Of a stretch of DNA of 64,000 nt, positions 6,923-60,191 are shown in pieces. The stretch spans positions 367,642 through 431,641 of the forward strand of contig CAWIDS010000001.1 in the NCBI GenBank assembly GCA_963834935.1, read 5' to 3'. The notes under the pieces are model-generated. The model was not told the origin of the DNA and ran no database searches. It saw only the letters and a list, made by a program, of their open reading frames with translations. The position numbers were made by a program, and so were the translations under genes. The number at the start of each line of letters is the position of its first letter. Within the stretch, counting starts at the first letter, position 1. This DNA comes from Candidatus Nomurabacteria bacterium. Its GTDB lineage: Bacteria; Patescibacteriota; Minisyncoccia; Phycocordibacterales; CALRBL01.

Positions 6923-8629
6923 ATGAAGAAGGTCGTCATCCGGGAACAGGAAGGGGAAACATTGCTTGATCACTTGCTCTTTCATCGTGGGATCGTCGGA
7001 CAAGACGAGAAAGAACGATTTCTCTATCCTTCATATGAAGAAGGCCTGAATGACCCTTATTTGCTTTCCGGCATGGAGAAGGCGGTTTCCCGCATAGATG
7101 AAGCGATAAAAAAGGAAGAAAAGATTCTCATATACAGCGATTATGACGCTGACGGTATTCCAGGGGCAGTCGTGCTCTCTGATTTTTTCAAGATGATCGG
7201 GTACATGAACGTCACCAACTACATCCCACACCGGCATGATGAAGGGTTCGGCCTGCACGAAGAAGCGATCGAGATCATTTCAAAAAACGGAATAACTTTG
7301 CTCATTACCGTCGATTGCGGCATAACTGACATAAAGGAAGTGGAAAAGGCGAATGGATTAGGGATTGACGTCATCATTACTGATCATCATCTACCCGGAG
7401 AAGCGCTGCCTGAAGCGTTCGCAATTATCGATCCGAAGCTGAGCCCGGAATATCCCGATCAGATGATTTGCGGATCGGGTGTCGCATTCAAGATCGTGCA
7501 AGCCATGCTTTCCAAAGACAGGAGGGGAGTTCCGGAAGGGAAAGAAAAGTGGCTTCTCGACATGGTTGGCTTGGCTACGCTTTCCGACATGGTTCCTCTC
7601 AAAGGCGAGAACAGGATTTTTGCCAAATACGGATTGAAGGTCCTCCAGAAGTCGCCCCGTCCCGGAATCCAGAAATTGCTTTCTTCGTTGAAGATTTCCC
7701 AAAAGGACGTCACTGAAGACGATATTGCCTTCATGGTCACACCGCGCATCAACGTGGCTTCCCGCATGGGTAGTCCAACAGATGCTTTCAAGCTTCTTTC
7801 CACTGATGATCCTGCTGAAGCTGCGATGCTGGTCGAGAAGCTTAATCTCCTGAATGACGAGCGCAAAGGGGTCGTGGCTGCAATAGTGAAGGAGATCAAG
7901 AACAAGATAAACAAGCGCGGACTTAAAGAGAAGAAAGTGATTGTCCTCGGCAATCCCTCATGGAAGCCAGCAGTGCTCGGCTTGGTTGCCAACAGCCTGA
8001 TGAAGGAATACCAGAAGCCAGCATTTCTCTGGGGCAGAAGCGGTAGTGAGTCGGGAACAGATGAATTGCTCAAAGGTTCCTGCCGGTCGGAAGGACAGAC
8101 AGATGTGGTTGCCTTGATGAGCAATGTGCCGAAAGGATTGTTCGACGATTTCGGCGGCCACAAGATGTCGGGAGGCTTTTCCGTATCCACCGAGAATATC
8201 CATCGATTAGATGAAGCCTTGAATGCCTCCTACGAAGAATTATTTTCAAAAAATATTAAAGACGAAGAAAAGCAGGCGGTTGATAGGGTTATTTCTATCG
8301 ACGATATCGATTTTTCACTATGGAACATCGTCGAGAAGCTCGCTCCTTTCGGCATAGACAATCACAAGCCAATCTTCCTTTTTAAGGATATCGTTCCAAC
8401 CGTTGTCAAACGCTTCGGCAAGAAGAGCGAGCATCTTGAGCTAGTCTTTAACAAGCAGAATCAGAAAAAGGTGTCTGCTATTTATTTTTTTACCGAGGAT
8501 AATCCTGAATTCAGCGCACTTTCGGCAGGAACGCCTTTCACCCTTCTTGCAACTCTCGAGAAGTCTACGTTTCGCGGATTCCCGGAACTGCGGCTCAGGA
8601 TCGTCGATGTTTCCGTCGTGTTACAATAG
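6923..8629 (+). CDS. recJ: Single-stranded-DNA-specific exonuclease RecJ
   Basis: DHH-family motifs are present: IYSDYDADGI, DHH (TDHHLP) and a DHHA1-like C-terminal half. Confidence 0.85.
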   Translation: MKKVVIREQEGETLLDHLLFHRGIVGQDEKERFLYPSYEEGLNDPYLLSGMEKAVSRIDEAIKKEEKILIYSDYDADGIPGAVVLSDFFKMIGYMNVTNYIPHRHDEGFGLHEEAIEIISKNGITLLITVDCGITDIKEVEKANGLGIDVIITDHHLPGEALPEAFAIIDPKLSPEYPDQMICGSGVAFKIVQAMLSKDRRGVPEGKEKWLLDMVGLATLSDMVPLKGENRIFAKYGLKVLQKSPRPGIQKLLSSLKISQKDVTEDDIAFMVTPRINVASRMGSPTDAFKLLSTDDPAEAAMLVEKLNLLNDERKGVVAAIVKEIKNKINKRGLKEKKVIVLGNPSWKPAVLGLVANSLMKEYQKPAFLWGRSGSESGTDELLKGSCRSEGQTDVVALMSNVPKGLFDDFGGHKMSGGFSVSTENIHRLDEALNASYEELFSKNIKDEEKQAVDRVISIDDIDFSLWNIVEKLAPFGIDNHKPIFLFKDIVPTVVKRFGKKSEHLELVFNKQNQKKVSAIYFFTEDNPEFSALSAGTPFTLLATLEKSTFRGFPELRLRIVDVSVVLQ

Positions 8630-18446: not shown

Positions 18447-18803
18447 TTATAGCTTCAGTCTTGAAGGATAGGAATTGAGGAACACTCCGTAACAGAGACG
18501 TTTGCGGAACTTTAATGCTTCAAGCTGGCTGATGCTGCGCTTCCTTCTGTGGATCTCTTCGATCACATCATGGCATGAAGTATTCTTCTCTCCGATCCGG
18601 AGAGGAACGATTGCCATGCTTTCCTTCTCGTTCAGGAATCTTTTGATCAGCCGGCCGATATCAGGAAGAATTACAGTCTGGATTGAGCTCGCCCTTATCC
18701 CGTAAAATCGGCGGAAATGAAGAGCAAGCTCTTCTCCTGTAGCATGATTCCTGAGCCCTAGCGCAAAAATGACACCTGTCTCTCGTCGTACTCTTGTATG
18801 CAT
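18447..18803 (-). CDS. Hypothetical protein
   Basis: 118-aa ORF convergent with fusA, with a shared hairpin terminator between them. No recognisable motifs. Confidence 0.35.
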   Translation of the reverse strand: MHTRVRRETGVIFALGLRNHATGEELALHFRRFYGIRASSIQTVILPDIGRLIKRFLNEKESMAIVPLRIGEKNTSCHDVIEEIHRRKRSISQLEALKFRKRLCYGVFLNSYPSRLKL

Positions 18804-18897
18804 ATCTCAGTGCGATGTTACTCTCAATATTCCAAAAATCAAGCAAATAAAAAAGCGCCTTTTAAGGGGCGCAGGTTTGGGAAGGCTATCAGGATGC

Positions 18898-19686
18898 TCA
18901 GGAACCGCCAATAGGCACGACCCCTCCTTTTTCATCAGGAGCAGTCCTGACGGACTCGATGTATCGGGAAAGCTTCTCTTCATCGAAGAGAGACTGGAAT
19001 ACATTTCTTTGCCTGAGCGAAGGTTCTATCTCGTCGCCGACATAGAACCATGCTTGAGACATTCCTCTACGAATTTCACCGTTGACGAACGGATTTCCGT
19101 GGAGGTTGAGGTGTATCACGTCTTTCTCGCCGTTCTTGCCGACGCCGGTTATGAGGCGTTTCCTGACAAACTCTCCGTTTGCATGAATACCGGTCGGATC
19201 GGTCTTGAAGAACCTCTGGATCGGCAGGACGTAGCTTATCGGGCTATACTCAGTTGGTTCGAACATGAGCTCTCCTTCGATGAGGCCGATGTAGAGCGTG
19301 TAGTGCGTCCGATACTGCTCGCTTTGGACCATGCCAGTCTCTCTGGTCTCCGCCAAAAGCATAGCCAAGAGCTTGTCCTGGTTATTCCGGAGCTTCTTGT
19401 TGAGGATGAGGACAGGATCGATGCTTTCCCGCTTGAAGCCATAAAGGCGAAGAAGCTGATCGTGCAGAGGGTCGCCGGTAGTCTCACCAGCATCCAATTT
19501 CGCGATCATCGCTTCCTTTGCAACCTCAAGTTCTCGGCCGTAGCTTTCGCGGGTTTTTCTCATTCCTATTTCTGCTTGTCGCAGCGCTTCCTCAGATCTC
19601 AAGACTGCTTCTTTGAAAGCATTTGGTATCTTCAGGAAGTGTTCAGGATTCAGCGGTTCTTTCACATTTTCACTCATAATTCGCAA
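18898..19686 (-). CDS. Hypothetical protein
   Basis: 262-aa ORF with balanced composition, between fusA and tuf on the opposite strand. No family recognised. Confidence 0.45.
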   Translation of the reverse strand: MRIMSENVKEPLNPEHFLKIPNAFKEAVLRSEEALRQAEIGMRKTRESYGRELEVAKEAMIAKLDAGETTGDPLHDQLLRLYGFKRESIDPVLILNKKLRNNQDKLLAMLLAETRETGMVQSEQYRTHYTLYIGLIEGELMFEPTEYSPISYVLPIQRFFKTDPTGIHANGEFVRKRLITGVGKNGEKDVIHLNLHGNPFVNGEIRRGMSQAWFYVGDEIEPSLRQRNVFQSLFDEEKLSRYIESVRTAPDEKGGVVPIGGS

Positions 19687-19743
19687 AGTTCAGTCTAGGT
19701 TTAGGGTTTATCTCTTCCGAAACATTACTCTACCTTAGGGTAT

Positions 19744-19770
19744 TTGACAACAATCTTTCTTTTGTATACT
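19744..19770 (+). promoter_or_regulatory. Promoter-like element upstream of tuf (TTGACA ... TGtATACT)
   Basis: TTGACA at 19744–19749 and an extended −10 TGTATACT at 19763–19770, with a 15–16-nt spacer. Confidence 0.4.
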
Positions 19771-19902
19771 ATTGCTCCTACAACGCTTTTGCGTTTTGTT
19801 TTCGCTCGTTTTTAGCAATTTATCAAGCCGGCTCTAGGTTACTCAGAAGTTTTTAATGGCTTTTGAGAGAACTATAGCCACAATATTAACTAAATAAAAT
19901 AT

Positions 19903-22807: not shown

Positions 22808-23089
22808 ATGAACCAGCCAAACACCAACGTCATCAGGAAGCTTCATGTCACCGAGAAATCGAGCCTTCTTTCGGAAGGCGGAGTATATTCGTTCGAAGTG
22901 GAGAAGTCTGCCACTAAGAAGCAGATTGCCAAGAATGTCGCCCTGCTCTACAAAGTCACTCCTCTGAAGGTGAGCGTCATCAACATGAAGTCTAAGGCTG
23001 TATTTTCACGCGGAAAAGCGGGAAAAACCTCCTCATTCAAAAAGGCTTACGTCTATCTCAAGAAAGGGGATGTCATTGATATGGCATAG
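22808..23089 (+). CDS. rplW: 50S ribosomal protein L23
   Basis: Position between L4 and L2, and VIRKLHVTEKS..YSFEV matches the L23 pattern. Confidence 0.85.
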   Translation: MNQPNTNVIRKLHVTEKSSLLSEGGVYSFEVEKSATKKQIAKNVALLYKVTPLKVSVINMKSKAVFSRGKAGKTSSFKKAYVYLKKGDVIDMA

Positions 23090-23106
23090 CATTTAATAAT
23101 AAAATC

Positions 23107-23949
23107 ATGAAGCACTACAAACCAACATCACCATCGAGACGAAACATGTCGACAACGACATATCGAGGAGTCATCACTGCAAGCGAGCCTCTCAAGTCTC
23201 TTACCTCAGGCTTCAAGCGATCTGTAGGACGCAACCATCATGGCCGCGTCACCACCCGCCACAAGGGAGCAGGACACAAGCGCCTTTTCCGTGATGTTGA
23301 TTTCAAATATAATAAGCGGGATATCGAAGGAAAGATCGCCACTGTCGAATATGATCCGAACCGAGGCGGATTCATCAGCTTGGTCGTCTACAAGGACGGC
23401 GAGAAACGATATTCCCTTTTCCCCAAGACTCTCAAAGTCGGCGATGCAGTCATCGCTTCAGAAAAAGCCCCTGTTACTCCCGGAAACAAGCTTCCTCTTC
23501 GAAACATTCCAGTCGGAACATTCGTTTATGCCGTCGAGCTCCGGCCTCAAGGCGGCGCAAAGATAGCTCGAGGCGCAGGAAACTACGCTGAGGTCATCGC
23601 TCAAGATGGTGGCTATACTCAGGTCAAATTGCCTTCATCAGAAGTTCGAAAGATCATTGATACCGCTTGGGCTACAGTAGGTGAAGTAGCAAATGACGAA
23701 CGACGCTTGGTCAATTTCGGAAAAGCGGGACGGAGTCGATGGATGGGTATCCGACCAACTGTCCGAGGTACTGCTATGAACCCGGTTGATCATCCTCATG
23801 GAGGAGGAGAAGGACGACAGGGCCGAGGACGCCGACGCGCCATCTCAGTCTATGGAAAACCGACAGGCAAGGGTCAGAAATCTCGAACTCCAAAGAAATA
23901 CTCGAACAATCTCATCGTCTCTCGACGAAAAGTAGGAAAGAAGAAATAG
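23107..23949 (+). CDS. rplB: 50S ribosomal protein L2
   Basis: MNPVDHPHGGGEGR and GKPTGKGQKSR. Confidence 0.95.
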   Translation: MKHYKPTSPSRRNMSTTTYRGVITASEPLKSLTSGFKRSVGRNHHGRVTTRHKGAGHKRLFRDVDFKYNKRDIEGKIATVEYDPNRGGFISLVVYKDGEKRYSLFPKTLKVGDAVIASEKAPVTPGNKLPLRNIPVGTFVYAVELRPQGGAKIARGAGNYAEVIAQDGGYTQVKLPSSEVRKIIDTAWATVGEVANDERRLVNFGKAGRSRWMGIRPTVRGTAMNPVDHPHGGGEGRQGRGRRRAISVYGKPTGKGQKSRTPKKYSNNLIVSRRKVGKKK

Positions 23950-23959
23950 GAACACTTGG

Positions 23960-25324
23960 ATGAAAATTCCCTCAAAAGTACATTTCTGGCATAAATGCAT
24001 CGAATGCCAGTCAGTCTATACGCCTGATTCGTTTCTATATACTTGCCCGAAATGTGGCGGCCTGCTTTCTGTCGAGCGTGATGAGAAATGGATAGACAAG
24101 AAAGTAGGAAAAGGCAAAGCCGCCCAGAAATATTTCGATAATATCCGCTACGGAAAGGCTCGAAGTGTATATCCGAATGACAGCGGAGTCTTCATGTGGC
24201 TCGATCACCTTCTTCCCGGCTTTCCTAAAGAATTAGTCATCTCCCTTCGCGAAGGATTCACGGATCTGTTTGAGATTCCGCAGTGGCTCCAGAAGCAGAT
24301 CGGTCTCAAGCATCTCTACATAAAGATGGAAGGGCAGCTTCCGTCAGAAAGCTTCAAGGATCGGGGAATGTCGCTAGCTATTTCTGAAGCGCTTCGTTTG
24401 CAGAGCGAATACCCTAAGCTTGGCATCAAGTATGTTGCTTGCGCCTCGACAGGTGACACTTCAGCAGCTGCGGCTATCTACAGCGCCTACGTGAAAGACA
24501 AGCTCGGCTGCCTAGTTTTTCTTCCTCATGAGCGCATTTCCCCTGGCCAGCTTTTCCAGGCAATGGCACATGGAGCCAAGGTCCTGGCTATCAAGCACAA
24601 GAAAGGCTTCGATGGCTGCATGGAACTCATTCAGCAGTATTGCGCCAATCACCCCGAAATCGTATTGGTGAATTCAAAGAACGCTCTCAGGCTTGTCGGA
24701 CAAGAGACGATCGCGCTTGAAATATGCCAGGATCTGAGTTGGAAGGTACCGGATTGGATTTCCGTTCCTTGCGGAAACGGAGGCAACCTCACCGCGCTTC
24801 TTACCTCGCTTCTACGCATGAAGAAACGCGGACTCATCAGTAAACTTCCTAAGATTATCGTTGCTCAGACAAAAGGGGCGAACACCCTGGTGCGATGGTC
24901 AAAGAGCGATTTCAAGAAATATGCGCCAGGAGAATTCAAGGAAACCATCGCTTCAGCCATGAATATCCAAAGCCCTGTTAGCTTTCCTCGCATCAAAAAG
25001 CTTTATCCGGAGTTCCGAATCGAGTTCTTCGATGTTGATGAGAAAAAGATTCAACAAAGCAGAGCTCTATTCATGAGTGCGGGGGCCAACATCTGCCCGC
25101 AGACAGCCGTCGCCTTGAATGCTGTCCTTCAGGCCAGAAAAAAGGGTAAAATCAAGGAAAACGAGGTAATAGTGACTATTGGTACGGCTAGCGGCATCAA
25201 ATTCTCAGAATCAGGCATCGAATATCACATGGGAGGCAAGAAAAACACTCACGCTAATCCTCCTTTGATAGTCGAAGGCACCCTTTCAAGCATCGAAAAA
25301 GCGGTCGGAAACGGAAAGAAATAA
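23960..25324 (+). CDS. Threonine-synthase-family PLP enzyme with N-terminal zinc ribbon, inserted in the S10 operon
   Basis: N-terminal CIECQSVYTPDSFLYTCPKCGG is a 4-Cys ribbon. ESFKDRGMSLAISEA contains the PLP-lysine motif (SFKDRG) of fold-type II / threonine synthase. The Gly-rich loop CGNGGN is present. Length 454 aa. Confidence 0.7.
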   Translation: MKIPSKVHFWHKCIECQSVYTPDSFLYTCPKCGGLLSVERDEKWIDKKVGKGKAAQKYFDNIRYGKARSVYPNDSGVFMWLDHLLPGFPKELVISLREGFTDLFEIPQWLQKQIGLKHLYIKMEGQLPSESFKDRGMSLAISEALRLQSEYPKLGIKYVACASTGDTSAAAAIYSAYVKDKLGCLVFLPHERISPGQLFQAMAHGAKVLAIKHKKGFDGCMELIQQYCANHPEIVLVNSKNALRLVGQETIALEICQDLSWKVPDWISVPCGNGGNLTALLTSLLRMKKRGLISKLPKIIVAQTKGANTLVRWSKSDFKKYAPGEFKETIASAMNIQSPVSFPRIKKLYPEFRIEFFDVDEKKIQQSRALFMSAGANICPQTAVALNAVLQARKKGKIKENEVIVTIGTASGIKFSESGIEYHMGGKKNTHANPPLIVEGTLSSIEKAVGNGKK

Positions 25325-25331
25325 TAAAGGT

Positions 25332-25359
25332 TTGACATTAGCCCAATCTTTGCTAGTAT
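25332..25359 (+). promoter_or_regulatory. Internal promoter between thrC-like gene and rpsS (TTGACAT-N-TGCTAGTAT)
   Basis: TTGACA at 25332–25337 and TGcTAGTAT ending at 25359, with a 16-nt spacer. Confidence 0.5.
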
Positions 25360-25410
25360 TGCTTTTACGGCTCTTAAAGAGCTTTTAATTTGCCCTAGAA
25401 TTTCAATTAA

Positions 25411-25752
25411 ATGACACGATCACTTAAAAAAGGACCATACGTCGAAGAACGACTCCTCAAGAAGATTGAGGGCAAAAAACCTACCGAAACCGGGGTTATT
25501 AAGACATGGTACCGCCGAAGCCAAATTTCTCCTGAGATGATTGGATTCATTTTCGGAGTCCACAATGGCAAGCAGCATATCGAGGTCCTTGTTACCGAGG
25601 AAATGGTCGGTCACCGCTTGGGAGAGTTCTCTCATACGAAGAAGTTCCTCCGACACGGAGGAAAGATGCAGAAGGAGCAGGAAGCTGCAAAGAAGGACGC
25701 TGAGATCGCCGCAGCAAAGGCCGCAAAATCATCTGACGTCGCTAAGAAATAA
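25411..25752 (+). CDS. rpsS: 30S ribosomal protein S19 (with Lys/Ala-rich C-terminal tail)
   Basis: [11 protein letters not shown]...GHRLGEF... Confidence 0.9.
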
Positions 25753-25769
25753 GCCATATTTAATATTTT

Positions 25770-26105
25770 ATGAAATCTTACCTCAAAAACTATCGACAAT
25801 CTCCCCGCAAGGTCCGCCTTGTGGCTGATGCGGTACGAGGCAAGGCGGTCACTGTGGCTCTACGCGATTTGGTTTTCACCAATAAGCGCGCTACCGACCC
25901 AATCGCCAAGCTCATCCTGAGCGCGGTATCGAACGCAAAGAACAATTTCAATGCAAAGGAAGAGAATCTTTTCATAAAGGATATCCAAGTGAACAAAGGC
26001 GTCGTCCTAAAAAGGATGATGCCTCGAGCTCGCGGATCAGCATCAAGGATTAACAAGCGCTCAAGCCATATTTCAGTGGTCTTGGAAGAAAAGCAGAGCA
26101 AATAA
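25770..26105 (+). CDS. rplV: 50S ribosomal protein L22
   Basis: Operon position and an L22-like basic sequence ([15 protein letters not shown]). Confidence 0.9.
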
Positions 26106-34119: not shown

Positions 34120-36906
34120 ATGGAACTTTTTTCTTCGCCCCAAGAAGAGATCGAACATTTGAAGCAAGAGATCCTTCACAAGGAAGAGCTTTTGAAGCAG
34201 GCAGGCGAAAAGCCTGATCGTGATGCCGCGGTCTTCAATCAGATAGAGGAGTACAAGAAGCTTCCGCAGGCCGAAATCCTCGCCAAGGGCCATCGCATGA
34301 TCGAGCCGCATATCAAGAAGGCAGCACTCGACCTTTTTCCCGAAGAGCATGACGCTCAGATGGGCGAATTAATGGCGTTGCTCGAGGGGAAAGGGGTGCT
34401 CAATACGCTCGCGGTCGTCGAGGCCATGAAGAATCCGCATATAGAAGACGATTTTCACCGTTATCTCGTCGAGTACATCAAGAGCAATCTTCCGGCTTTG
34501 AACCTCAAGGAAAAGACTCCGCTTTATCGGTCTCTCAACCACACCCTTTTTGAAGTCTCTCTTCCCGAAGCCAAGAAAGACGAAAAAGAAAAGAATCTCA
34601 AGGAGCTCATTTCAAGCATGGAACAGTTCTACGCGGGAATGCTTTCAGTGGCTGACAGCAGCGACAAGGAAAATTATTTTTCGATTGAGCTGGCCCTCTC
34701 CCATGATAGCGACGAGTTCATCTTTTACGTCTCTGTTCCCGACAAGAAAAAAAGCCTCTTTGAGAAGAATATCCTCTCGGTCTTTCCGCATGCGAAGCTG
34801 GTCATAAAGAAGGACGATTATAACATCTTCAATCCGGATGGAGCGGTGGTTGCGTCGGTCGCCACGCAGGCCAAGAATGCCATTTACCCCATCAAGACCT
34901 ACGAGAATTTCGATTATGATCCGCTCAATGTCATCATAAATGCCTTTTCCAAGCTGAAGAAAGGAGGCGAAGGCGCATCACTGCAGCTTATCCTCAATCC
35001 TGCCGGTGATTACTACGTCAAGCGCTACAAGGATGCCCTCGGTCAGATTCTGAAGGGAGTGCCAGTGAAGAAAGCTATCGATATACGTCACACATTCATG
35101 GGGGAAATCGGAAAAGGCTTCAAGGAAATGGCTTTGGATATGGTCAACGATGCCGTCTCTTCAAGCAAGAAGGAGAACGACAAGCCGAAGCCACTCGATG
35201 AGACTGCAGTCGAAAACATAAAGAATAAGATCAGCACGCCGATCATGAATGCCAATATGAGGATAGTGGTATCAGCCGAGAATGCCGAGCGGGCATCGGA
35301 AGTGATATCAGAAATCGAGTCGTCCTTCAATCAGTTCGAGAATACGCTTGGCAATACGTTCAAGTGGCAGCGTATTCCGGAAAAAAAATTACCTCAATTC
35401 GTTCGCGATTTCACTTTTAGGATGTTCGAGCATGGCGAGCAGCTTCCTTTGAGTATTGCCGAAATCACCACCTTCATGCATTTTCCCGGAGCAGGCATCC
35501 TAGGCGGAGGCCAGCTCAAACAGGCTAAGGCCGGTACTGCTCCCGCACCACTTGATATTCCTCAGACTGGGGTCTACCTCGGAATAAACAGCCACCGCAA
35601 CCATGATGTTTCTGTTTACATGTCTCCCGAAGACCGCTTGCGTCATTTTTATGTTATAGGCCAGACCGGAACGGGAAAGACGACTCTTCTTAAGAATATG
35701 ATCGTCCAGGATATTGAGAACGGGGAAGGAGTCTGCTTCATTGATCCTCATGGATCGGACGTGCAAGATATCCTTGCTCGCGTGCCGAAGGAGCGTTACG
35801 GGGACGTTATCTATTTCGACCCGAGCTACCATGACCGTCCGATGGGCATGAATATGCTCGAATACGATCCTGCCTATCCTGAGCAAAAGACCTTCGTGGT
35901 CAATGAGCTCTTTTCTATTTTTGACAAGCTTTTCGATATGAAGACTACCGGAGGACCGATGTTCGAGCAATATTTCAGGAATGCCACCATGCTCGTGCTC
36001 GAGGATCCTGAAAGCGGCAACACACTAGTAGATGTTTCTCGCGTGCTTTCGAACAAAGCCTTTCGCGACCTGAAGATTTCCCGCTGCAAGAACCCGATTG
36101 TCACCCAGTTCTGGACGGAGATAGCCGCCAAAGCCGGCGGGGAATCGTCGCTTGCCAATATCGTGCCGTACATTACCAGCAAATTTGATGTGTTCCTGTC
36201 GAACGACATCATGCGCCCGCTCATTGCCCAGGAAAAATCCTCTTTCAATTTCCGGGAAGTGATGGATAAGAAGAAGATCCTACTTGTAAACCTCTCGAAG
36301 GGCAGGCTTGGCGACATCAATGCCAATCTTATCGGCCTCATTCTGGTCGGAAAGATCCTGATGGCAGCCCTTTCGCGCGTTGATTCGCTTGCCACAGGTT
36401 TTGCGCCTTTCTACTTGTACATCGACGAGTTTCAGAACATCACCACTAATTCCATCTCGACTATCCTTTCCGAGGCCCGCAAGTACAAGCTGTCGCTCCA
36501 TATCGCCCACCAGTTCATTGCCCAGCTCAAGGACGATATCCGCGATGCAGTCTTTGGCAACGTCGGCTCAATCGTCTCATATCGCGTGGGAGCAGAAGAT
36601 GCCGAGTATCTGGAGAAGCAATTCACGCCGGTATTCGCAGCCAATGACATCATGAATCTAGATAATCTTAATGCCTATGCCAAGCTTCTAATAAATGGCC
36701 GGCCGGCGCGTCCGTTCAATATCGCAGTGCCTTTCCCAAACAAGGTAGATACTTCACACCTCGAATCGCTTAAGCAGCTTTCATACCTTAAATACGGCAC
36801 CGACCGGGCAACAATCGAGGAAATCATCCTGCAAAAATACAAAAAAGAAGAACCCGTGCCCAAACCCGCTCCCGCAGCCAACCCATTCGATAGTTTGAAG
36901 GTCTGA
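34120..36906 (+). CDS. Large soluble P-loop ATPase, VirB4/VirD4 (TrwB/TraG)-like HerA–FtsK-superfamily domain with a 500-aa N-terminal domain of unknown function
   Basis: Walker A is YVIGQTGTGKTT at about aa 515 and Walker B is FYLYIDEFQNI at about aa 770, followed by ARKYKLSLHIAHQ. This is the Arg-Lys plus conserved Gln pattern of T4SS-type ATPases. There are no predicted TM helices and the N-terminus is coiled-coil. Confidence 0.6.
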   Translation: MELFSSPQEEIEHLKQEILHKEELLKQAGEKPDRDAAVFNQIEEYKKLPQAEILAKGHRMIEPHIKKAALDLFPEEHDAQMGELMALLEGKGVLNTLAVVEAMKNPHIEDDFHRYLVEYIKSNLPALNLKEKTPLYRSLNHTLFEVSLPEAKKDEKEKNLKELISSMEQFYAGMLSVADSSDKENYFSIELALSHDSDEFIFYVSVPDKKKSLFEKNILSVFPHAKLVIKKDDYNIFNPDGAVVASVATQAKNAIYPIKTYENFDYDPLNVIINAFSKLKKGGEGASLQLILNPAGDYYVKRYKDALGQILKGVPVKKAIDIRHTFMGEIGKGFKEMALDMVNDAVSSSKKENDKPKPLDETAVENIKNKISTPIMNANMRIVVSAENAERASEVISEIESSFNQFENTLGNTFKWQRIPEKKLPQFVRDFTFRMFEHGEQLPLSIAEITTFMHFPGAGILGGGQLKQAKAGTAPAPLDIPQTGVYLGINSHRNHDVSVYMSPEDRLRHFYVIGQTGTGKTTLLKNMIVQDIENGEGVCFIDPHGSDVQDILARVPKERYGDVIYFDPSYHDRPMGMNMLEYDPAYPEQKTFVVNELFSIFDKLFDMKTTGGPMFEQYFRNATMLVLEDPESGNTLVDVSRVLSNKAFRDLKISRCKNPIVTQFWTEIAAKAGGESSLANIVPYITSKFDVFLSNDIMRPLIAQEKSSFNFREVMDKKKILLVNLSKGRLGDINANLIGLILVGKILMAALSRVDSLATGFAPFYLYIDEFQNITTNSISTILSEARKYKLSLHIAHQFIAQLKDDIRDAVFGNVGSIVSYRVGAEDAEYLEKQFTPVFAANDIMNLDNLNAYAKLLINGRPARPFNIAVPFPNKVDTSHLESLKQLSYLKYGTDRATIEEIILQKYKKEEPVPKPAPAANPFDSLKV

Positions 36907-36926
36907 AAATGTGCTAGAATCGACTG

Positions 36927-37514
36927 ATGACACATCCAAAATACGAAAGGACATTAGTGGTGCTGAAGCCTGACGCCTTGCAGCGAGGTTTGATAGGGGA
37001 AATCATTGGCCGCTTCGAAAGGGTAGGAATGAAGCTTGTCGGTATCAAGATGTTCACCCCCACTCAGGAATTTGTCGAGAAGCACTATACTTTGGACTCT
37101 GCCTGGAAAAAAAGCGTCGGTGAGAAGAATATAAAAGGTTATTTAGACAAAGGGCTCACTCCGCCAACGGCCGATCCTCTTGAAGCAGGACAGGAAATAC
37201 TCACTCGGCTTACGAATTATCTCGCCAGCGGGCCGATTGTGGCCATGGTCTGGCAGGGAGCGCACGCCGTCGGCCTGACACGCAAGCTCGTCGGTAGTAC
37301 CGAGCCTCTTTCATCAGATGTCGGAACCATCCGTGGCGACTTCGTTCATGATTCATATGTCCTTTCGGCTGATGATAAGCGTGCTGTGCGCAATCTCATC
37401 CACGCATCCGGCTCGATACCAGAAGCGGATATGGAAATTCCTCATTGGTTCTTGGAAAATGAGCTTGTGGACTACGTCTTAGTGCAGGAAAAAGTTCTGT
37501 ACGATGCAAATTAA
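36927..37514 (+). CDS. ndk: Nucleoside diphosphate kinase (long form with internal insertion)
   Basis: ERTLVVLKPDALQRGLIGEIIGRFE and NLIHAS(G)S match the active-site His region. Confidence 0.85.
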   Translation: MTHPKYERTLVVLKPDALQRGLIGEIIGRFERVGMKLVGIKMFTPTQEFVEKHYTLDSAWKKSVGEKNIKGYLDKGLTPPTADPLEAGQEILTRLTNYLASGPIVAMVWQGAHAVGLTRKLVGSTEPLSSDVGTIRGDFVHDSYVLSADDKRAVRNLIHASGSIPEADMEIPHWFLENELVDYVLVQEKVLYDAN

Positions 37515-43161: not shown

Positions 43162-43434
43162 ATGTTCATGAGATCTCCGGAAAGCCCCATATCCCAGGAA
43201 AGTCTCGACTCCTTTTTGGAGAGTTTTCAAGCTGACTCGCTTTCCGAAATGAAGCAGCGTCTTGCAGAATATTTTCATCCGCTCATTGGCGAATCGACCA
43301 TCGAAGCGCATTACGATGATTTTGAGAAGGGGACAGGATCAATCATGTTCGGTGACAGGAAAATCGGCACCTTTGAAATATTTCCGTTCAAGGCCGTCTT
43401 AGATAAGGAGGAGATGATTAATTGTCTTAGTTAG
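43162..43434 (+). CDS. Hypothetical small protein
   Basis: 90-aa acidic ORF with no motifs. Its 3' end overlaps the putative ssrA promoter. Confidence 0.3.
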   Translation: MFMRSPESPISQESLDSFLESFQADSLSEMKQRLAEYFHPLIGESTIEAHYDDFEKGTGSIMFGDRKIGTFEIFPFKAVLDKEEMINCLS

Positions 43435-43450
43435 TTTTTCGTGTTATAAT
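43422..43450 (+). promoter_or_regulatory. Sigma70-like promoter of ssrA: TTGTCT-N17-TATAAT with TG extension
   Basis: TTGTCT at 43422–43427 and TATAAT at 43445–43450, preceded by TGt. The position is about 28 nt upstream of the mature tmRNA 5' end, consistent with a processed precursor. Confidence 0.5.
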
Positions 43451-43477: not shown

Positions 43478-43880
43478 GGGAATGACAGGCATCGACAGGA
43501 GAAGCCATTCCTGATTTGCGGCATAGAGCTCCGGGAACTCTTTAAAAGCCCGGAAAACCGAAATGCAAAATCTGCACTTTCAATGGCCAAGTCTGTTGTG
43601 TCTCCGTATTTCGGAGCCAACGATTTCGCTTTCGCTTACGTCCGAGCCTAAATTTTAGACTCGCGCCTAGCGACGCTTCATGGTCCTAGTCCTCTCGGGA
43701 ACAGCGGAGTGTTATAAAGATGAGGATGCTTCGCCAAGCGCCCCGTACGGCGACCAAGACAAGGGGCAAAGCTGACGACCATTTTGTTGATTTCAAGGCC
43801 GTCATTCGAACAAATCATCTACATGCCGTAGATTAGTCAGGAACCTCTCTTGCACCCGAGTTCAATTCTCGGCATTTCCA
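43478..43880 (+). ncRNA. ssrA: Transfer-messenger RNA (tmRNA, ssrA)
   Basis: The 5' GGGAATG pairs with the 3' CATTTCC as an acceptor stem with a G3·U wobble. The conserved ATCGACAGG box follows the 5' strand. A T-arm CCGAG-TTCAATT-CTCGG precedes the 3' acceptor strand and a discriminator A. An internal tag ORF GCC AAC GAT TTC GCT TTC GCT TAC GTC CGA GCC TAA encodes ANDFAFAYVRA. smpB lies about 2.6 kb downstream. Confidence 0.8.
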
Positions 43881-44014
43881 CTATTTTATTGTCTTCAAGT
43901 AGGCTTTGTAAGATAGGGCGTCCAGAGACGTCCTTTTAAAACGTGAAGGGCCCCAAGCCCTCCGGATCGATATACATTATCAAGGTCGCTTAACATTATT
44001 AGCATTATAAACAT

Positions 44015-46159: not shown

Positions 46160-46187
46160 TTGACATAGAAAAAGAGCATGCTAGTAT
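46160..46187 (+). promoter_or_regulatory. Sigma70-like promoter TTGACAT-N-TGCTAGTAT
   Basis: TTGACA at 46160–46165 with a 16-nt spacer, and TGcTAGTAT at 46179–46187. The architecture and sequence are nearly identical to the promoter at 25332. Confidence 0.45.
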
Positions 46188-46430
46188 CTTTTTCATACCA
46201 GCTTCCGCTCTCATGGTGAGCAGGGGAAGCAGGCGATCCAATAAAAATATGATCAAATCAGACCATGGCCAAAAGGCCAATTGTCAGCGTAATATCCCGG
46301 TGAGCCTCCGCGGCTGTAGCAATTATTCCATCTTGGCTTCCAGCGGCGTCGCCCTCCCTCGTCGAGACTGATCGCCCCGCGGCGGCCGAAGCCTCCCGCC
46401 AAGGCCACATCGGCTGCTGCCGCGATCAAA

Positions 46431-46480
46431 ATGCCGGTCCCATCATGGGGGCCGGCATTTACTCTTCCTTTTTTATTTTA
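46431..46480. terminator. Bidirectional terminator (GC hairpin ATGCCGGTCCCATCATGGGGGCCGGCAT plus T-rich tract) shared by the upstream GC-rich element and smpB
   Basis: Hairpin followed by TTACTCTTCCTTTTTTATTTTAT on the plus strand. It lies immediately downstream of the smpB stop on the minus strand. Confidence 0.55.
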
Positions 46481-56734: not shown

Positions 56735-57058
56735 ATGGAAAAACCTAATTCCGCATTACTGGAAGAAAATATGAAAGCTTCTGGATCAGACTCTGAAGTG
56801 TCAGGAGAAAAAGAGGTCTCAGAAGCAGAAAACAGTCATACAGAATTAGTAAAATTTAGCAAAAGATATTCTCACGAAGGTCGTCAAAAGATAGCTGAAG
56901 AAATAAAGGAGTTACGTTTTCAGTATTTTAAAAAGGAAAAAGGAAATCCTGAACGTCAAAAAACTATTGATGAACAAGAAAAAAGTATCGAGGTACTTCA
57001 AAAAGAAAAAGAACAATGTACCGGACCCCTTTCTTTAGACACTCATTCTACTCACTAA
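56735..57058 (+). CDS. Lys/Glu-rich coiled-coil hypothetical protein, 3' end truncated by IS insertion
   Basis: The last 14 codons (..CTGPLSLDTHSTH*) are read from the IS terminal inverted repeat that begins at 57017. Confidence 0.35.
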   Translation: MEKPNSALLEENMKASGSDSEVSGEKEVSEAENSHTELVKFSKRYSHEGRQKIAEEIKELRFQYFKKEKGNPERQKTIDEQEKSIEVLQKEKEQCTGPLSLDTHSTH

Positions 57059-57856
57059 GTTTAACTCTTTTTTCTGTATTTTCGCAAATTCTGACGGAGA
57101 CATTTTAAGTGCGGAATGTATGCGGCTTTGATTGTAGTAGTGGATCAGTCGGTACATTTCTGAGACGAGTTCACCGAGTGTTTTGAATCGGGAAGGATCT
57201 CCAAGCTCCACCTTGAATTTGTCATAGAACGATTCCTGGTAGCCGTTCTCCCATGGACAGCCGGGAGCTGAACGGGAAATGGATACTCCGACTGTTTGCA
57301 ATGCTCCAACAAATGTCTCCGAATTGTACTCACTGCCATTGTCGGAGTGAAATATTTCCGGTCTTGAATTTGAAAGCATCGCATTCATCAAGGCTGACAA
57401 GGTCAGTTGCACCGAATGGTTGGTGTAGACCGACACACCAACCACTTTCCTGGTGAACAAGTCCTCAACGGTTGCCACATACACAACCTTCCCTTGAAAA
57501 GGAATTCTGGTGAAGTCCGACACCCAGATATGGTTCTCGCATGAAGGGTATTCCGTCAACAACAGATTGGGGTAAGTGACCTTGATATTCCTTGTTTTCT
57601 TCCATTTTCTGCCACGCCTGCGATATGCTTTGATGCCGAATATGCTCATGACTCTTTGAACAGGTTTTCGGTTCATTTTGAGGTGGATAGCAATCCTTCT
57701 TGAGCCGTATGAGGGATGCTCCCTGAGGGTTTCCTCAATCCGGCACTTCAGCACCCAATCCCTGTCAGGTTTCTTTGGCTTGTAGTACAAAGTGCCTCGA
57801 GAAACGCCAAGCTCCCTGGCAAGCGTTGATTTGTCAGAAGATTTCATACTCCTCAA
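57035..57856 (-). CDS. IS3-family transposase OrfB (integrase core, DDE)
   Basis: WVSDFTRIPF..VYVATVEDLFTRKVVG ... HSDNGSEYNS ... PWENGYQESF give the D, D and E catalytic residues in rve spacing. Confidence 0.85.
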   Translation of the reverse strand: MRSMKSSDKSTLARELGVSRGTLYYKPKKPDRDWVLKCRIEETLREHPSYGSRRIAIHLKMNRKPVQRVMSIFGIKAYRRRGRKWKKTRNIKVTYPNLLLTEYPSCENHIWVSDFTRIPFQGKVVYVATVEDLFTRKVVGVSVYTNHSVQLTLSALMNAMLSNSRPEIFHSDNGSEYNSETFVGALQTVGVSISRSAPGCPWENGYQESFYDKFKVELGDPSRFKTLGELVSEMYRLIHYYNQSRIHSALKMSPSEFAKIQKKELNLVSRMSV

Positions 57857-57904
57857 TTCTTTTTTTGGGATTCAGACAGCTTGAGAGTCATCTCTCCAAC
57901 CAGT

Positions 57905-58105
57905 TCAAGAAGAGCTTTGTTTTCCTTTCTGAGTCGTGCCATCTCGGCATACGAGGGACCGTCCGCCGAGCCTCCCAGCCACTTGTATATGGTGTGGGTG
58001 GGAAACTCCGTGGTCTTTAGCCGCTTCCGCTACCGATATGCCATCATTTTTAATCCTACCTAAAACCTGCTCCTTTACTTCGGGAGCGATACGATATTTC
58101 TTCAT
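57905..58105 (-). pseudogene. IS3-family transposase OrfA (HTH), apparently interrupted by a 1-nt frameshift
   Basis: The annotated frame reads MKKYRIAPEVKEQVLGRIKNDGISVAEAAKDHGVS, then non-homologous sequence and a stop. The shifted frame continues with the canonical ...PTHTIYKWLGGSADGPSYAEMARLRKENKALLELVGEMTLKLSESQKKN and ends at the slippery site. Confidence 0.55.
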
Positions 58106-58218
58106 GTATGTATTCTACAAATTAGCTGTTAATTGTGTAGAAGGGGTGTTTAAAATTTGGGGACCGGGTCACTACCACTTCAGTCTTCGAGACCGTATGG
58201 GAGAAATACAGAAAGATC

Positions 58219-58542
58219 ATGCTGAGCATTCTCAAGAGGGACAAGGAGACGTTCCTCTGCTACCGGGATGACAGGATTCCCATCATGATCCATCTCCTTA
58301 TCCTCGTTATGTCACTTCCGGTGCTCATCATCATCTCCCTGCTCGAATACAAGTCTGCCTGGACGGGCACCACCTGCGTCTTCTTCGTATCGTTCGCCCT
58401 GTCCTTGTATTGGGTAGTAGTAACCGAACTGCAGAATCCCTCAAAGAGCCTATGGTTCGTGGAACGTGTTCCCGATGAATGGTTGACGATAGACATTGAT
58501 ATGCACTTCAAATTGGCAGAGGAGGAGAAAAACCAAAAGTGA
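58219..58542 (+). CDS. Hypothetical small membrane protein
   Basis: Two predicted TM helices. It is followed by a hairpin plus T-run at about 58548–58585. Confidence 0.3.
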   Translation: MLSILKRDKETFLCYRDDRIPIMIHLLILVMSLPVLIIISLLEYKSAWTGTTCVFFVSFALSLYWVVVTELQNPSKSLWFVERVPDEWLTIDIDMHFKLAEEEKNQK

Positions 58543-58907
58543 ACCTACGACCGAGAGCTATGGAGCTCCGGTCTTTTTTATTTACTTCCCTTCACCACTA
58601 TCCGAACATCCTCCCACGTGCGGAGCAGGATCTATAGCCAATTTTTCTACAATATCTAAAATATGAGGATAATACTCTGTCTTTAGGGTTGCAATGAGTG
58701 TTTGTAATAACCACGGGACCGTTCCTCTCACTGTGTAAATAAGTCTAGGATCTTCACCTTCTTCGATCCTTAGACCCATCAACAGAAATAGCCCCGCATT
58801 CGCATGAGGTTAAATTGCTGTGCGTTTCAAAATGAATTTCAGTACCGCATTTCTTGCACTTAATGTAGGTTTCTGTTTTGTTTTGGTTTGCAACGGGATT
58901 CATAAGA

Positions 58908-60191
58908 TTATTTTTTGTTCAGATCAAGCAACCATTCGTACAAAGGCTTAAACACAATCGTCACATCGTCTTTCTTAACCTCACGCTTATCATTCCACGT
59001 CAAAATAGTAAGCTTATTCACATTGAGCTCCTTCCCAGCCTCAACAAGTGCCCGTACTTCTCTCTGCTCGACTTCTGGGTTGCTTGCCTCGTAGCAGACC
59101 TGTATAAGCTCGAGTACTTCATTTCCTTTCTTAACAACAAAATCAACCTCTTTTTGGTTTCGAGTATGGTAATAAAACAATTCTCTACCAGGCTCATTGC
59201 CTTGCTTTACCAATTCGGTAAAAACAAGGTTTTCCATCAGCTTGCCATTGTTTGGAGAATGCTGGACCGCCTTTGCCGCCACAAATCCGTTATCAACCAC
59301 GTATGCTTTCTTTGGAGATCGCAACCGGAGACCTACTTTGGCTGAGAATCGATTCAGAGTGAATATCAAATACGCTTCGGTAAGATATCCGAGATACTTT
59401 TCTATAGTAGTCCCGCTCTTTGATCCAAGTGCCAACGCCATCTTCCGTATGCTGTAGAGCGAGGTGAAATTATTTACGAGATACGTTCCAAGACCGTCTA
59501 TCTGTCCGGAAAATCGCACATGATGCCTTCGCACCACATCCTTAAAAAGGAGTGAATCAAAAAGCACATCAAGATAGCCTCGAGGATCAACGTCTTTAAG
59601 CACGACTTCGGGATAACCACCGTTTGTCATGTATTGGTTAAGAATCTGCAAAAGCTGTCCGGACCCAGTCGGAGAAGCGAGATTTCCCTCGGTAAGTTGA
59701 AATCCTTTAGCTTTCAGTATTTCATTGAAATCAAAAGGCAATATCTGTATCGGTATATGTCGTCCCGTAAGTGCCGTAGCCAGTTCTTTTGAAAGCAATC
59801 GAGCGTTCGATCCGGTAATAACCAGATTATATCCTTCACGATGAAGCCTGTTTACGAATAATTCCCATTTCGGTAAGTTTTGTATTTCATCAAAGAGAAT
59901 ATATTTCGTATCTCCATAGGCAAGTTTTAATTCTTGCATCAACTCATTGAGGTCGAGCTGATCTTCACCAGGAAGCGATTCGTCATCAAAATTAAAATAG
60001 GCAAAAGACTGATCCTTGAGCAGCATCAGCGAAAATACGGACTTGCCTGCGCGGCGTGGTCCGAGAATAACTTTTATAAGGTCAGATGAGAGCCATTTTT
60101 TAGCCTCTTTTTCCTTGGTTCGCTCTATGTAAGGAAGTGACAAAAGTCGCTCTTTTTCCTCTTTTTGTTTTAAAACAGTCGTTTTTAGCAT
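58908..60191 (-). CDS. AAA+ ATPase, COG1373-like (AAA_14 plus DUF4143 architecture)
   Basis: Walker A is ILGPRRAGKS and Walker B is ILFDEIQNLPKWE. The C-terminal region is typical of the DUF4143 family. Confidence 0.7.
   Translation of the reverse strand: MLKTTVLKQKEEKERLLSLPYIERTKEKEAKKWLSSDLIKVILGPRRAGKSVFSLMLLKDQSFAYFNFDDESLPGEDQLDLNELMQELKLAYGDTKYILFDEIQNLPKWELFVNRLHREGYNLVITGSNARLLSKELATALTGRHIPIQILPFDFNEILKAKGFQLTEGNLASPTGSGQLLQILNQYMTNGGYPEVVLKDVDPRGYLDVLFDSLLFKDVVRRHHVRFSGQIDGLGTYLVNNFTSLYSIRKMALALGSKSGTTIEKYLGYLTEAYLIFTLNRFSAKVGLRLRSPKKAYVVDNGFVAAKAVQHSPNNGKLMENLVFTELVKQGNEPGRELFYYHTRNQKEVDFVVKKGNEVLELIQVCYEASNPEVEQREVRALVEAGKELNVNKLTILTWNDKREVKKDDVTIVFKPLYEWLLDLNKK

Follow-up and report, generated by a model that had tools for sequence, protein, structure and literature searches.

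We analysed a 64-kb window of DNA, about a sixth of its source contig, in which a gene for a predicted threonine synthase (TS), thrC, lies inside a cluster of ribosomal protein genes. The cluster runs tuf, rpsJ, rplC, rplD, rplW, rplB, thrC, rpsS, rplV, rpsC, rplP, rpmC, rpsQ, rplN, rplX, rplE, rpsN, rpsH, rplF, rplR, rpsE, rplO, secY, adk, and map. As an earlier sequence-only reading of this DNA had described, the inserted open reading frame (ORF) encodes 454 amino acids and occupies positions 23960..25324 of the + strand, with an ATG start and the stop codon included. It begins 10 nucleotides (nt) after the stop codon of rplB (23107..23949, +), which encodes ribosomal protein L2 of 280 amino acids (homologues named L2; Pfam Ribosomal_L2_N and Ribosomal_L2_C). 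It ends 86 nt before rpsS (25411..25752, +), which encodes ribosomal protein S19 and is the first gene of the downstream unit. This 86-nt gap is the longest from tuf to adk, where the remaining gaps measure 1–54 nt. The gene order on either side of the insert is that of the canonical bacterial S10 operon (rpsJ-rplC-rplD-rplW-rplB-rpsS-rplV-rpsC-rplP-rpmC-rpsQ), from which the window differs in carrying a metabolic gene at the boundary between rplB and rpsS. No L30 gene lies between rpsE and rplO in the cluster, an absence that we take to be a trait of Patescibacteria (candidate phyla radiation, CPR), and the names of the homologues likewise place the organism, an ultra-small bacterium, in this group. 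As a whole, the locus is best explained as a genuine ThrC that was relocated to a pre-existing boundary, with an older promoter retained, and we consider this explanation likely.

Based on profile searches, the ORF product is a fold-type II pyridoxal 5'-phosphate (PLP) enzyme that matches Pfam PALP (PF00291) over residues 94–407 with an E-value of 5e-46 and 157.8 bits. The NCBIfam equivalog model for thrC, TIGR00260, gives 199.3 bits against a cut-off of 167.1. In contrast, the cysteate synthase model TIGR03844 gives only 47.2 bits against a cut-off of 324.9, and the scores of the cysteine synthase and threonine dehydratase models are far under their cut-offs. Cysteate synthase and other TS-derived enzymes belong to the same superfamily and have TS ancestry in common. 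The profile searches uphold the sequence-only assignment to the TS family of fold-type II PLP enzymes and speak against the cysteate synthase role that the same reading had considered.

In a search of solved structures, the strong matches are all TSs. The best is the Arabidopsis enzyme (1e5x, 239 bits, residues 19–442), and the short bacterial TS structures follow behind it with 128–156 bits. Similarly, an AlphaFold2 model built from an alignment of 44 members of the Patescibacteria clade described below (predicted local distance difference test score, pLDDT, 89.6; predicted template modelling score, pTM, 0.91) has the Arabidopsis TS 2c2b_A as its best Foldseek match over the whole chain (template modelling, TM, scores 0.89/0.91; root-mean-square deviation 2.6 Å), and Foldseek matches 1–22 are all TSs. 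The motifs SFK133DRG, ASTGDTS, N238-S-x-N-x-x-R244, G-N273-x-G-N276, and T409-A-x-G-x-K414 align with those of solved TSs. Lys133, the PLP Schiff-base lysine (codon 24356..24358, +; context E-S-F-K133-D-R-G), aligns with the SFKD lysine of five solved TSs and is invariant in the alignment of 44 clade members. Moreover, 1e5x, 2d1f, 2zsj, 6cgq, and 1uim have identical residues aligned to K133, A162-S168, N238/S239/R244, and N273/N276, all of which are at least 90% conserved both in and outside the clade. Substrate phosphate and carboxylate binding by the motif residues is presumed here from the Thermus thermophilus TS complex. Collectively, these comparisons of sequence and model identify the ORF product as a genuine long-form threonine synthase (ThrC, EC 4.2.3.1), a PLP enzyme predicted to convert O-phospho-L-homoserine and water into L-threonine and phosphate.

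The N-terminus carries a 4-Cys Zn-ribbon (C13-I-E-C16, C29-P-K-C32; 23996..24055, +) whose Cys residues are at least 90% conserved in the clade. This region gives sub-threshold matches to DUF7129 and several Zn-ribbon Pfam families and has a pLDDT of 82–97. The sequence-only reading was right to place this ribbon and the SFKDRG motif in the protein, yet it singled out the ribbon as a special feature. Of 75 long-form homologues from outside the Patescibacteria, 74 have all four Cys residues, and the ribbon is therefore a family trait.

The long-form bacterial TSs with a Zn-ribbon (L014–L089, 35–40% identical; NF006050/PRK08197 type) resemble the window's enzyme in architecture, in the four Cys residues, and in alignment over the full length. 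The Arabidopsis thaliana TS (1E5X, 2C2B, 2C2G), a plant long form activated by S-adenosylmethionine, is the best match in both sequence and fold and shares the N-terminal extension domain (alignment from residue 19) and the ASTGDTS motif. However, its identity is only about one third (31–34% in the Foldseek alignments), and it is without the 4-Cys ribbon, with Ser at the position of C29, while the alignment to the crystal-structure sequence does not reach the other three Cys positions. Furthermore, the clade has substitutions at several positions that the plant enzyme has in common with the non-CPR long forms (H40R, W55A, W71Y, K80W, C124E, H128P, and L135R). L135 of the plant and other long forms gives SFKDLG, and the core of the clade is often like that of the short bacterial forms (E124, P128, R135). 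The short forms (Mycobacterium tuberculosis 2D1F, Aquifex aeolicus 2ZSJ, Bacillus subtilis 6CGQ/6NMX, and T. thermophilus 1UIM/1V7C) share the catalytic core and motifs, with TM scores to the target of 0.84–0.91. In contrast to the target, they are without the first ~90 residues, which comprise the ribbon and the N-terminal domain, and they have ASTGNTS instead of ASTGDTS.

A protein search returned 6,409 relatives at E-values of 1e-10 or less, the best 120 of which are 60–82% identical; the named ones among these 120 are "threonine synthase" of Parcubacteria, Paceibacterota, Levybacteria, and Minisyncoccia. The alignment of 44 clade members has a mean column identity of 69%, and conservation of at least 90% in the CPR clade as well as in the other long-form TSs is seen at 90 positions. 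We placed the enzyme in a neighbour-joining tree of 68 clade members, 75 full-length homologues from other metagenome bacteria (35–40% identity), the Arabidopsis enzyme, and four short-form TSs as the outgroup. Monophyly of the Patescibacteria clade was recovered in 40 of 40 bootstraps, and its sister in the tree is the long-form group, which includes the Zn-ribbon bacterial enzymes and the plant enzyme. At G130, K249, P309, I334, and H/N411, where all other compared TSs are constant, the clade has residues of its own (G130E, K249E, P309T, I334M, and H/N411S). G130E lies three residues ahead of the PLP lysine, and K249E changes GQKT to GQET; the clade also has V240K and E246V nearby, which could be a charge swap. 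As judged from these alignments, the clade is an orthologous TS with predicted TS activity. The enzyme itself is thus an ordinary annotation, and public databases already label the clade as threonine synthase.

To set the position of thrC in context, we compared the window with four relatives picked by RplB identity, namely L092 (94%), L093 (87%), L094 (83%), and L095 (84%). In L092, rplB is followed by a 105-nt spacer and rpsS without thrC; only the first 30 nt of rpsS are visible there, and the 10 N-terminal residues of the product are the same as in the window. L095 has the whole canonical cluster, with an 81-nt spacer between rplB and the gene annotated as S19 and again no thrC. In L093 and L094, a strong terminator stands directly past rplB and is followed by unrelated ORFs, and no rpsS lies within 4 kb of rplB. 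The post-rplB gene sets of these two relatives are unrelated to one another and to the window: L093 (3817..7817) carries four ORFs of 242–285 amino acids without a Pfam match, and L094 (4843..8843) carries a convergent ORF of 185 amino acids, an extracytoplasmic function (ECF)-type sigma factor gene, and four ORFs of no assigned function. The operon boundary at rplB and rpsS therefore varies among the relatives.

Elsewhere in the clade, thrC is found between TGT and gmk/uvrB, between the ATP-synthase operon and uvrB, among glycosyltransferase genes, between uppS and a polyprenyl synthase gene, and beside infC-rplT. The closest TS relatives, which are 79–82% identical, adjoin uvrB, TGT, or the ATP synthase operon. 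RplW, RplB, RpsS, RplV, and RpsC are not encoded within reach of any of 89 TS loci, and a location in a ribosomal operon was seen at none of the 14 independent clade loci besides that of the window. With thrC elsewhere in the clade and the site empty in L092 and L095, its position is therefore specific to the window's lineage. The lineage-specific insertion proposed from sequence alone has thus held up, and the gene is not a universal occupant of this junction in related genomes. The opposite history, in which thrC between rplB and rpsS would be the older state and was precisely deleted in L092 and L095, would have the frequent changes at this site in L093 and L094 on its side, and the junction repeat described below could mediate a deletion too. 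However, it needs two independent precise deletions, bacteria in general have rplB next to rpsS, the nearest TS relatives stand elsewhere, and no other clade TS locus lies in a ribosomal operon; we regard such a history as very improbable.

The assembly is of the metagenome type, and an exact look-up of the gene product gave no record, both of which would suit a chimeric contig that joins a thrC fragment into the ribosomal cluster. An artefact of this kind is nevertheless barely credible. The ORF is complete and placed exactly between a stop codon and a −35 box, and on each side the sequence runs colinear with L092 and L095 as far as the junction. Moreover, the composition and codon usage match those of the window, and NCBI, Logan, and the European Nucleotide Archive (ENA) have records of the identical protein.

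In codon usage, thrC is a typical gene of the window, ranking 4th closest among 41 genes, and its GC content is uniform with it; a foreign origin by composition was therefore rejected. The divergence is also alike, with 79–82% identity between thrC and its nearest relatives and 83–87% for RplB among the related genomes. This pattern of composition and divergence fits the relocation of a resident gene and not a recent foreign import. The insert consists of thrC alone, with no transposase gene and no terminal inverted repeats, as would be seen with a transposon or insertion sequence (IS). The two junctions carry a short direct repeat (D4). Its left copy, GGAAAGAAGAAATA (23935..23948, +), is formed by the last codons of rplB, a tail that is the same in L095, L093, and L092, while its right copy, GGAAAGAAATAATA (25313..25326, +), encodes the thrC tail G-K-K-stop. 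The first 12 nt of GGAAAGAAATAATA equal the rplB tail of L092 at 12 of 12 nt, GGAAAGAAATAA has a single occurrence in the window, and the native C-termini of the TS relatives are AVGK or AVKK. The repeat is suggestive of recombination at microhomology or of a small target duplication, which may have taken place within the last rplB codons, at GGAAAGAA..ATA.

Directly past thrC, 7 nt downstream of the insertion point, begins a sigma-70-type promoter-like site (25332..25359, +) with a −35 box TTGACA, a 16-nt spacer, and an extended −10 box TGcTAGTAT, scoring 10/12 with TG two bases before the −10. By chance, 64 kb would hold about 4.2 (±1.9) sites of at least 10/12 on each strand, or 0.19 with TG, and the probability of finding one in the 86-nt spacer is roughly 0.004, or 2e-4 with TG. 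The whole window holds 17 sites of at least 10/12 on the + strand, where the majority of its genes lie, and 4 on the − strand, against the same expectation per strand; the excess of promoter-like sites goes with the coding strand. L092 and L095, both without thrC, carry TTGAC[A/T]-16-TGCTAGTAT in their spacers between rplB and rpsS. The promoter-like site pointed out in the sequence-only reading is thus above chance and kept in two relatives.

Between this site and rpsS lies a hairpin of 5–6 bp (25369..25392, +; GGCTCTTAAAGAGCT, −6.3 kcal/mol), which is followed by the T-run TTTTAATTT. Similarly, the spacers of L092 and L095 form 5-bp hairpins of −6.5 and −6.7 kcal/mol about 10 nt past the −10 box, again followed by a T-run. 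The hairpin position and its 3' arm AAGAGCTTTT are kept in both relatives, and TTTGCTAGTAT and AAGAGCTTTT are invariant in all three sequences. The hairpin could be a weak terminator of the upstream unit, a 5'-terminal stem-loop that protects the rpsS transcript, or both. A scan of positions 23000..26000 against Rfam found no RNA family at an E-value of 1 or less.

In the account of the sequence-only reading, thrC interrupted an S10 operon that had been one unit, and the expression of rpsS through secY was restored by a promoter that arose or was selected past the inserted gene. In favour of this account, the site is real, strong, and directly past thrC, and classical S10 operons, such as that of E. 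coli, have a single promoter. However, L092 and L095 have the same −35 box, 16-nt spacer, TGCTAGTAT, hairpin with T-run, and unusually long spacer without thrC, and the unit terminates past rplB in L093 and L094. The promoter-like site and the long spacer are therefore both older than the insertion, as is the split into two units, and a compensatory promoter is highly improbable. In other words, compared with the canonical S10 operon, the cluster of this lineage is divided at the boundary of rplB and rpsS by a conserved promoter-like site and hairpin in the window, L092, and L095, and at rplB by a terminator and foreign genes in L093 and L094. From these comparisons, the rpsS promoter-like site, which we predict to be active, predates the thrC insertion.

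A second promoter-like site (TTGACA-17-TACTAT) lies upstream of tuf (19744..19772, +), followed by a small hairpin (19782..19795) and a T-run about 10 nt later. It is the probable start of a tuf-rpsJ-rplC-rplD-rplW-rplB-thrC transcription unit. From 19795 to the hairpin at 25369, the + strand has a single terminator-like site, a weak match at 24043, inside thrC; therefore, thrC would be expressed with the translation apparatus. The tuf and rpsS sites share this layout of promoter and then hairpin, which may be how transcription starts are generally built in this organism. Another site of at least 10/12, TTGTCT-17-TGtTATAAT (43422..43450), lies about 28 nt upstream of the transfer-messenger RNA (tmRNA) gene, and sigma-70-type promoters therefore appear to be in use in the organism. 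The tmRNA gene itself (43478..43883, +) scores 79.7 bits with Rfam and was missed by ARAGORN. Additionally, a 10/12 site at 23076..23105 (+) ends 2 nt ahead of the rplB ATG. It was rejected as an rplB promoter for this reason, and the homologues support the 280-amino acid start. The deposited RplB of the source genome starts 13 codons later (267 amino acids), while most listed homologues favour the 280-amino acid start.

Taken together, we propose that thrC, with a leader of 10 nt and without mobile-element genes, was relocated into the last codons or the 3' flank of rplB. The landing site would already have separated the unit from tuf and S10 to L2 from the unit starting with S19, which had its own promoter, as in the relatives. 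After the relocation, thrC would most likely form the final cistron on the tuf-rpsJ-rplCDWB transcript and be expressed along with the translation machinery, while rpsS and the downstream genes would keep the older promoter at 25332..25359, and no repair would be needed.

The pathway context was evaluated against the neighbourhoods of the other TS loci. Among the non-CPR long forms, a Cys/Met-PLP enzyme, aspartokinase, homoserine dehydrogenase, or asd gene lies nearby in 43 of 76 loci (Cys/Met-PLP enzyme in 31, aspartokinase or homoserine dehydrogenase in 12, asd in 3). In contrast, 13 of the 14 independent clade loci are without an aspartate-family neighbour. The single clade locus with such neighbours is L002 (Candidatus Levyibacteriota, JACQKQ010000003), whose TS is 70% identical to that of the window and whose gene order is thrS(−) | thrC, aspartokinase/homoserine dehydrogenase fusion (ThrA), asd | ilvA(−). 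The amino acid biosynthesis genes in positions 1..13296 of L002 are those for DAHP synthase, 3-dehydroquinate synthase, thrC, the aspartokinase/homoserine dehydrogenase fusion, asd, and ilvA, with thrS divergent from thrC; the ThrA fusion is ~50% identical to its counterparts in Ignavibacteria and Bacteroidota. For the non-CPR loci, we also observed an 8-nt overlap between the start of the Cys/Met-PLP gene and the TS stop, seen in at least 11 of the 31 loci. The product, whose identity was checked with Pfam in L017, is a Cys/Met-metabolism PLP enzyme of ~400 amino acids (cystathionine gamma-synthase family), encoded beside TS at 7343..8551 of L017 and in 30 other non-CPR loci, of which L019, L027, L043, L060, L067, L071, L072, L074, and L086 are examples. 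This tight pair of thrC and a metB-like gene resembles the plant O-phosphohomoserine branch point.

When the L002 ThrA fusion was used as the query, about 45 CPR-like clusters (at least 53% identical) were listed, after which Ignavibacteria and Bacteroidota sequences follow, whereas the list for the TS clade is still at 60% identity at rank 120 (more than 120 clusters at 60% or above). These search lists hint at a larger number of clusters for thrC than for the upstream pathway genes in these genomes. In the literature available for searching, nothing relevant linked threonine synthase, thrC, or homoserine with Patescibacteria or CPR, and no paper there takes up the cluster numbers or the rare linkage.

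Several observations weigh against a genuine, relocated ThrC as the explanation. The narrower TS equivalog models NF006050 (161.6 bits against a cut-off of 303), NF004170, and NF005035 score under their cut-offs. The stem of the clade is long, at 0.39 substitutions per site, and the clade has the residues of its own listed above. Aspartate-family neighbours are confined to L002 among the 14 independent clade loci, and thrA, asd, hom, thrB, and aspartokinase genes are all absent among the ORFs of at least 150 amino acids in the window. No ThrA-type fusion from the source contig appears among the 120 best relatives of the L002 ThrA. Finally, the junction repeat is short and purine-rich, with a size like that of chance repeats of the same region, and the view of rpsS in L092 is partial.

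Some of these observations would suit a TS-like enzyme with a different job, such as salvage of host-derived O-phosphohomoserine, or a lyase or synthase acting on another phospho-amino acid, instead of de novo threonine synthesis. The scarcity of aspartate-family neighbours in the clade, the missing pathway genes in the window, the smaller number of CPR ThrA-type clusters, and the long stem branch with changes at otherwise constant TS positions all point in this direction, and the high conservation of the enzyme (60–82% identity in the best 120 clusters) implies selection. In contrast, TIGR00260 is over its cut-off with cysteate synthase far under, the residues presumed to bind phosphate and carboxylate in solved TSs are all kept, and an orthologue with 70% identity stands in a thrA-asd-ilvA cluster beside thrS. 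Moreover, operon dispersal is common in reduced genomes, and the window covers only a sixth of the contig. We therefore judge a different job to be unlikely. A broader form of this idea, that the clade TS is kept under strong constraint for a different purpose in many genomes without the rest of the aspartate-to-threonine pathway, is decidedly doubtful. If it were true, a host-derived phospho-amino acid (O-phosphohomoserine or a relative) would be converted into threonine or another product, and capture by the ribosomal protein unit would reflect a growth-linked, near-essential role. Overall, a changed role or changed regulation of the clade TS carries a low probability, and a genuine ThrC at a pre-existing boundary is the preferred explanation.

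As a candidate substitute for homoserine kinase, we considered a small P-loop kinase encoded next to thrC. The candidates compared were SKI-like (L090), Cytidylate_kin2 (L011), AAA_18 (L007), gmk (L003), adk (L008), and a 190-amino acid ORF (L002), which looks HD-domain-like by eye (HD..D motif). They are mutually non-homologous except for one weak pair, and the idea was dropped.

Other features of the window were observed outside the boundary itself. In bacteria, the block infA-rpmJ-rpsM-rpsK-rpsD-rpoA-rplQ is usually next after map. This block is missing directly after map in the window, where 34120..37514 (+) encodes a VirD4/TraG-like coupling ATPase of 928 amino acids and ndk. The interval between fusA and tuf (18769..19698) contains two long overlapping antisense ORFs of 309 (+) and 262 (−) amino acids, neither with a Pfam match. 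At 57035..60191 (−), an IS3-type integrase (rve) gene and an AAA_14/DUF4143 ATPase gene may form part of a mobile region; the ATPase gene has a GC content at third codon positions (GC3) of 0.41, the lowest among the 41 genes checked. Additionally, a second site with boxes identical to those of the rpsS promoter (TTGACA-16-TGCTAGTAT) lies in 46160..46480 (+). The ~280 nt past this site are GC-rich and fold strongly, and a hairpin with a T-run closes the stretch near 46428–46480. This region contains no ORF of at least 150 amino acids and no credible Rfam family (best E-value 0.005, an animal microRNA), and it is a candidate unannotated small RNA.

In summary, the locus holds a normal threonine synthase in an unusual but explicable place, with a promoter that is ancestral and not compensatory. 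As read from sequence comparison, the S10 cluster is not one operon in this Patescibacteria lineage; its transcription is divided between rplB and rpsS, at a conserved boundary that has a predicted promoter of its own. Across five related genomes, this junction occurs in three states: empty, occupied by thrC, or followed by a terminator and unrelated genes. The junction thus shows, as a clean natural case, at which point a core ribosomal cluster can take up new genes harmlessly. Furthermore, the clade TS appears to form more clusters than the upstream genes and is rarely linked to them, which offers a lead on what these symbionts take from their hosts. The main points of note for this group are the variable boundary between rplB and rpsS and the unexplained retention of thrC in reduced genomes.

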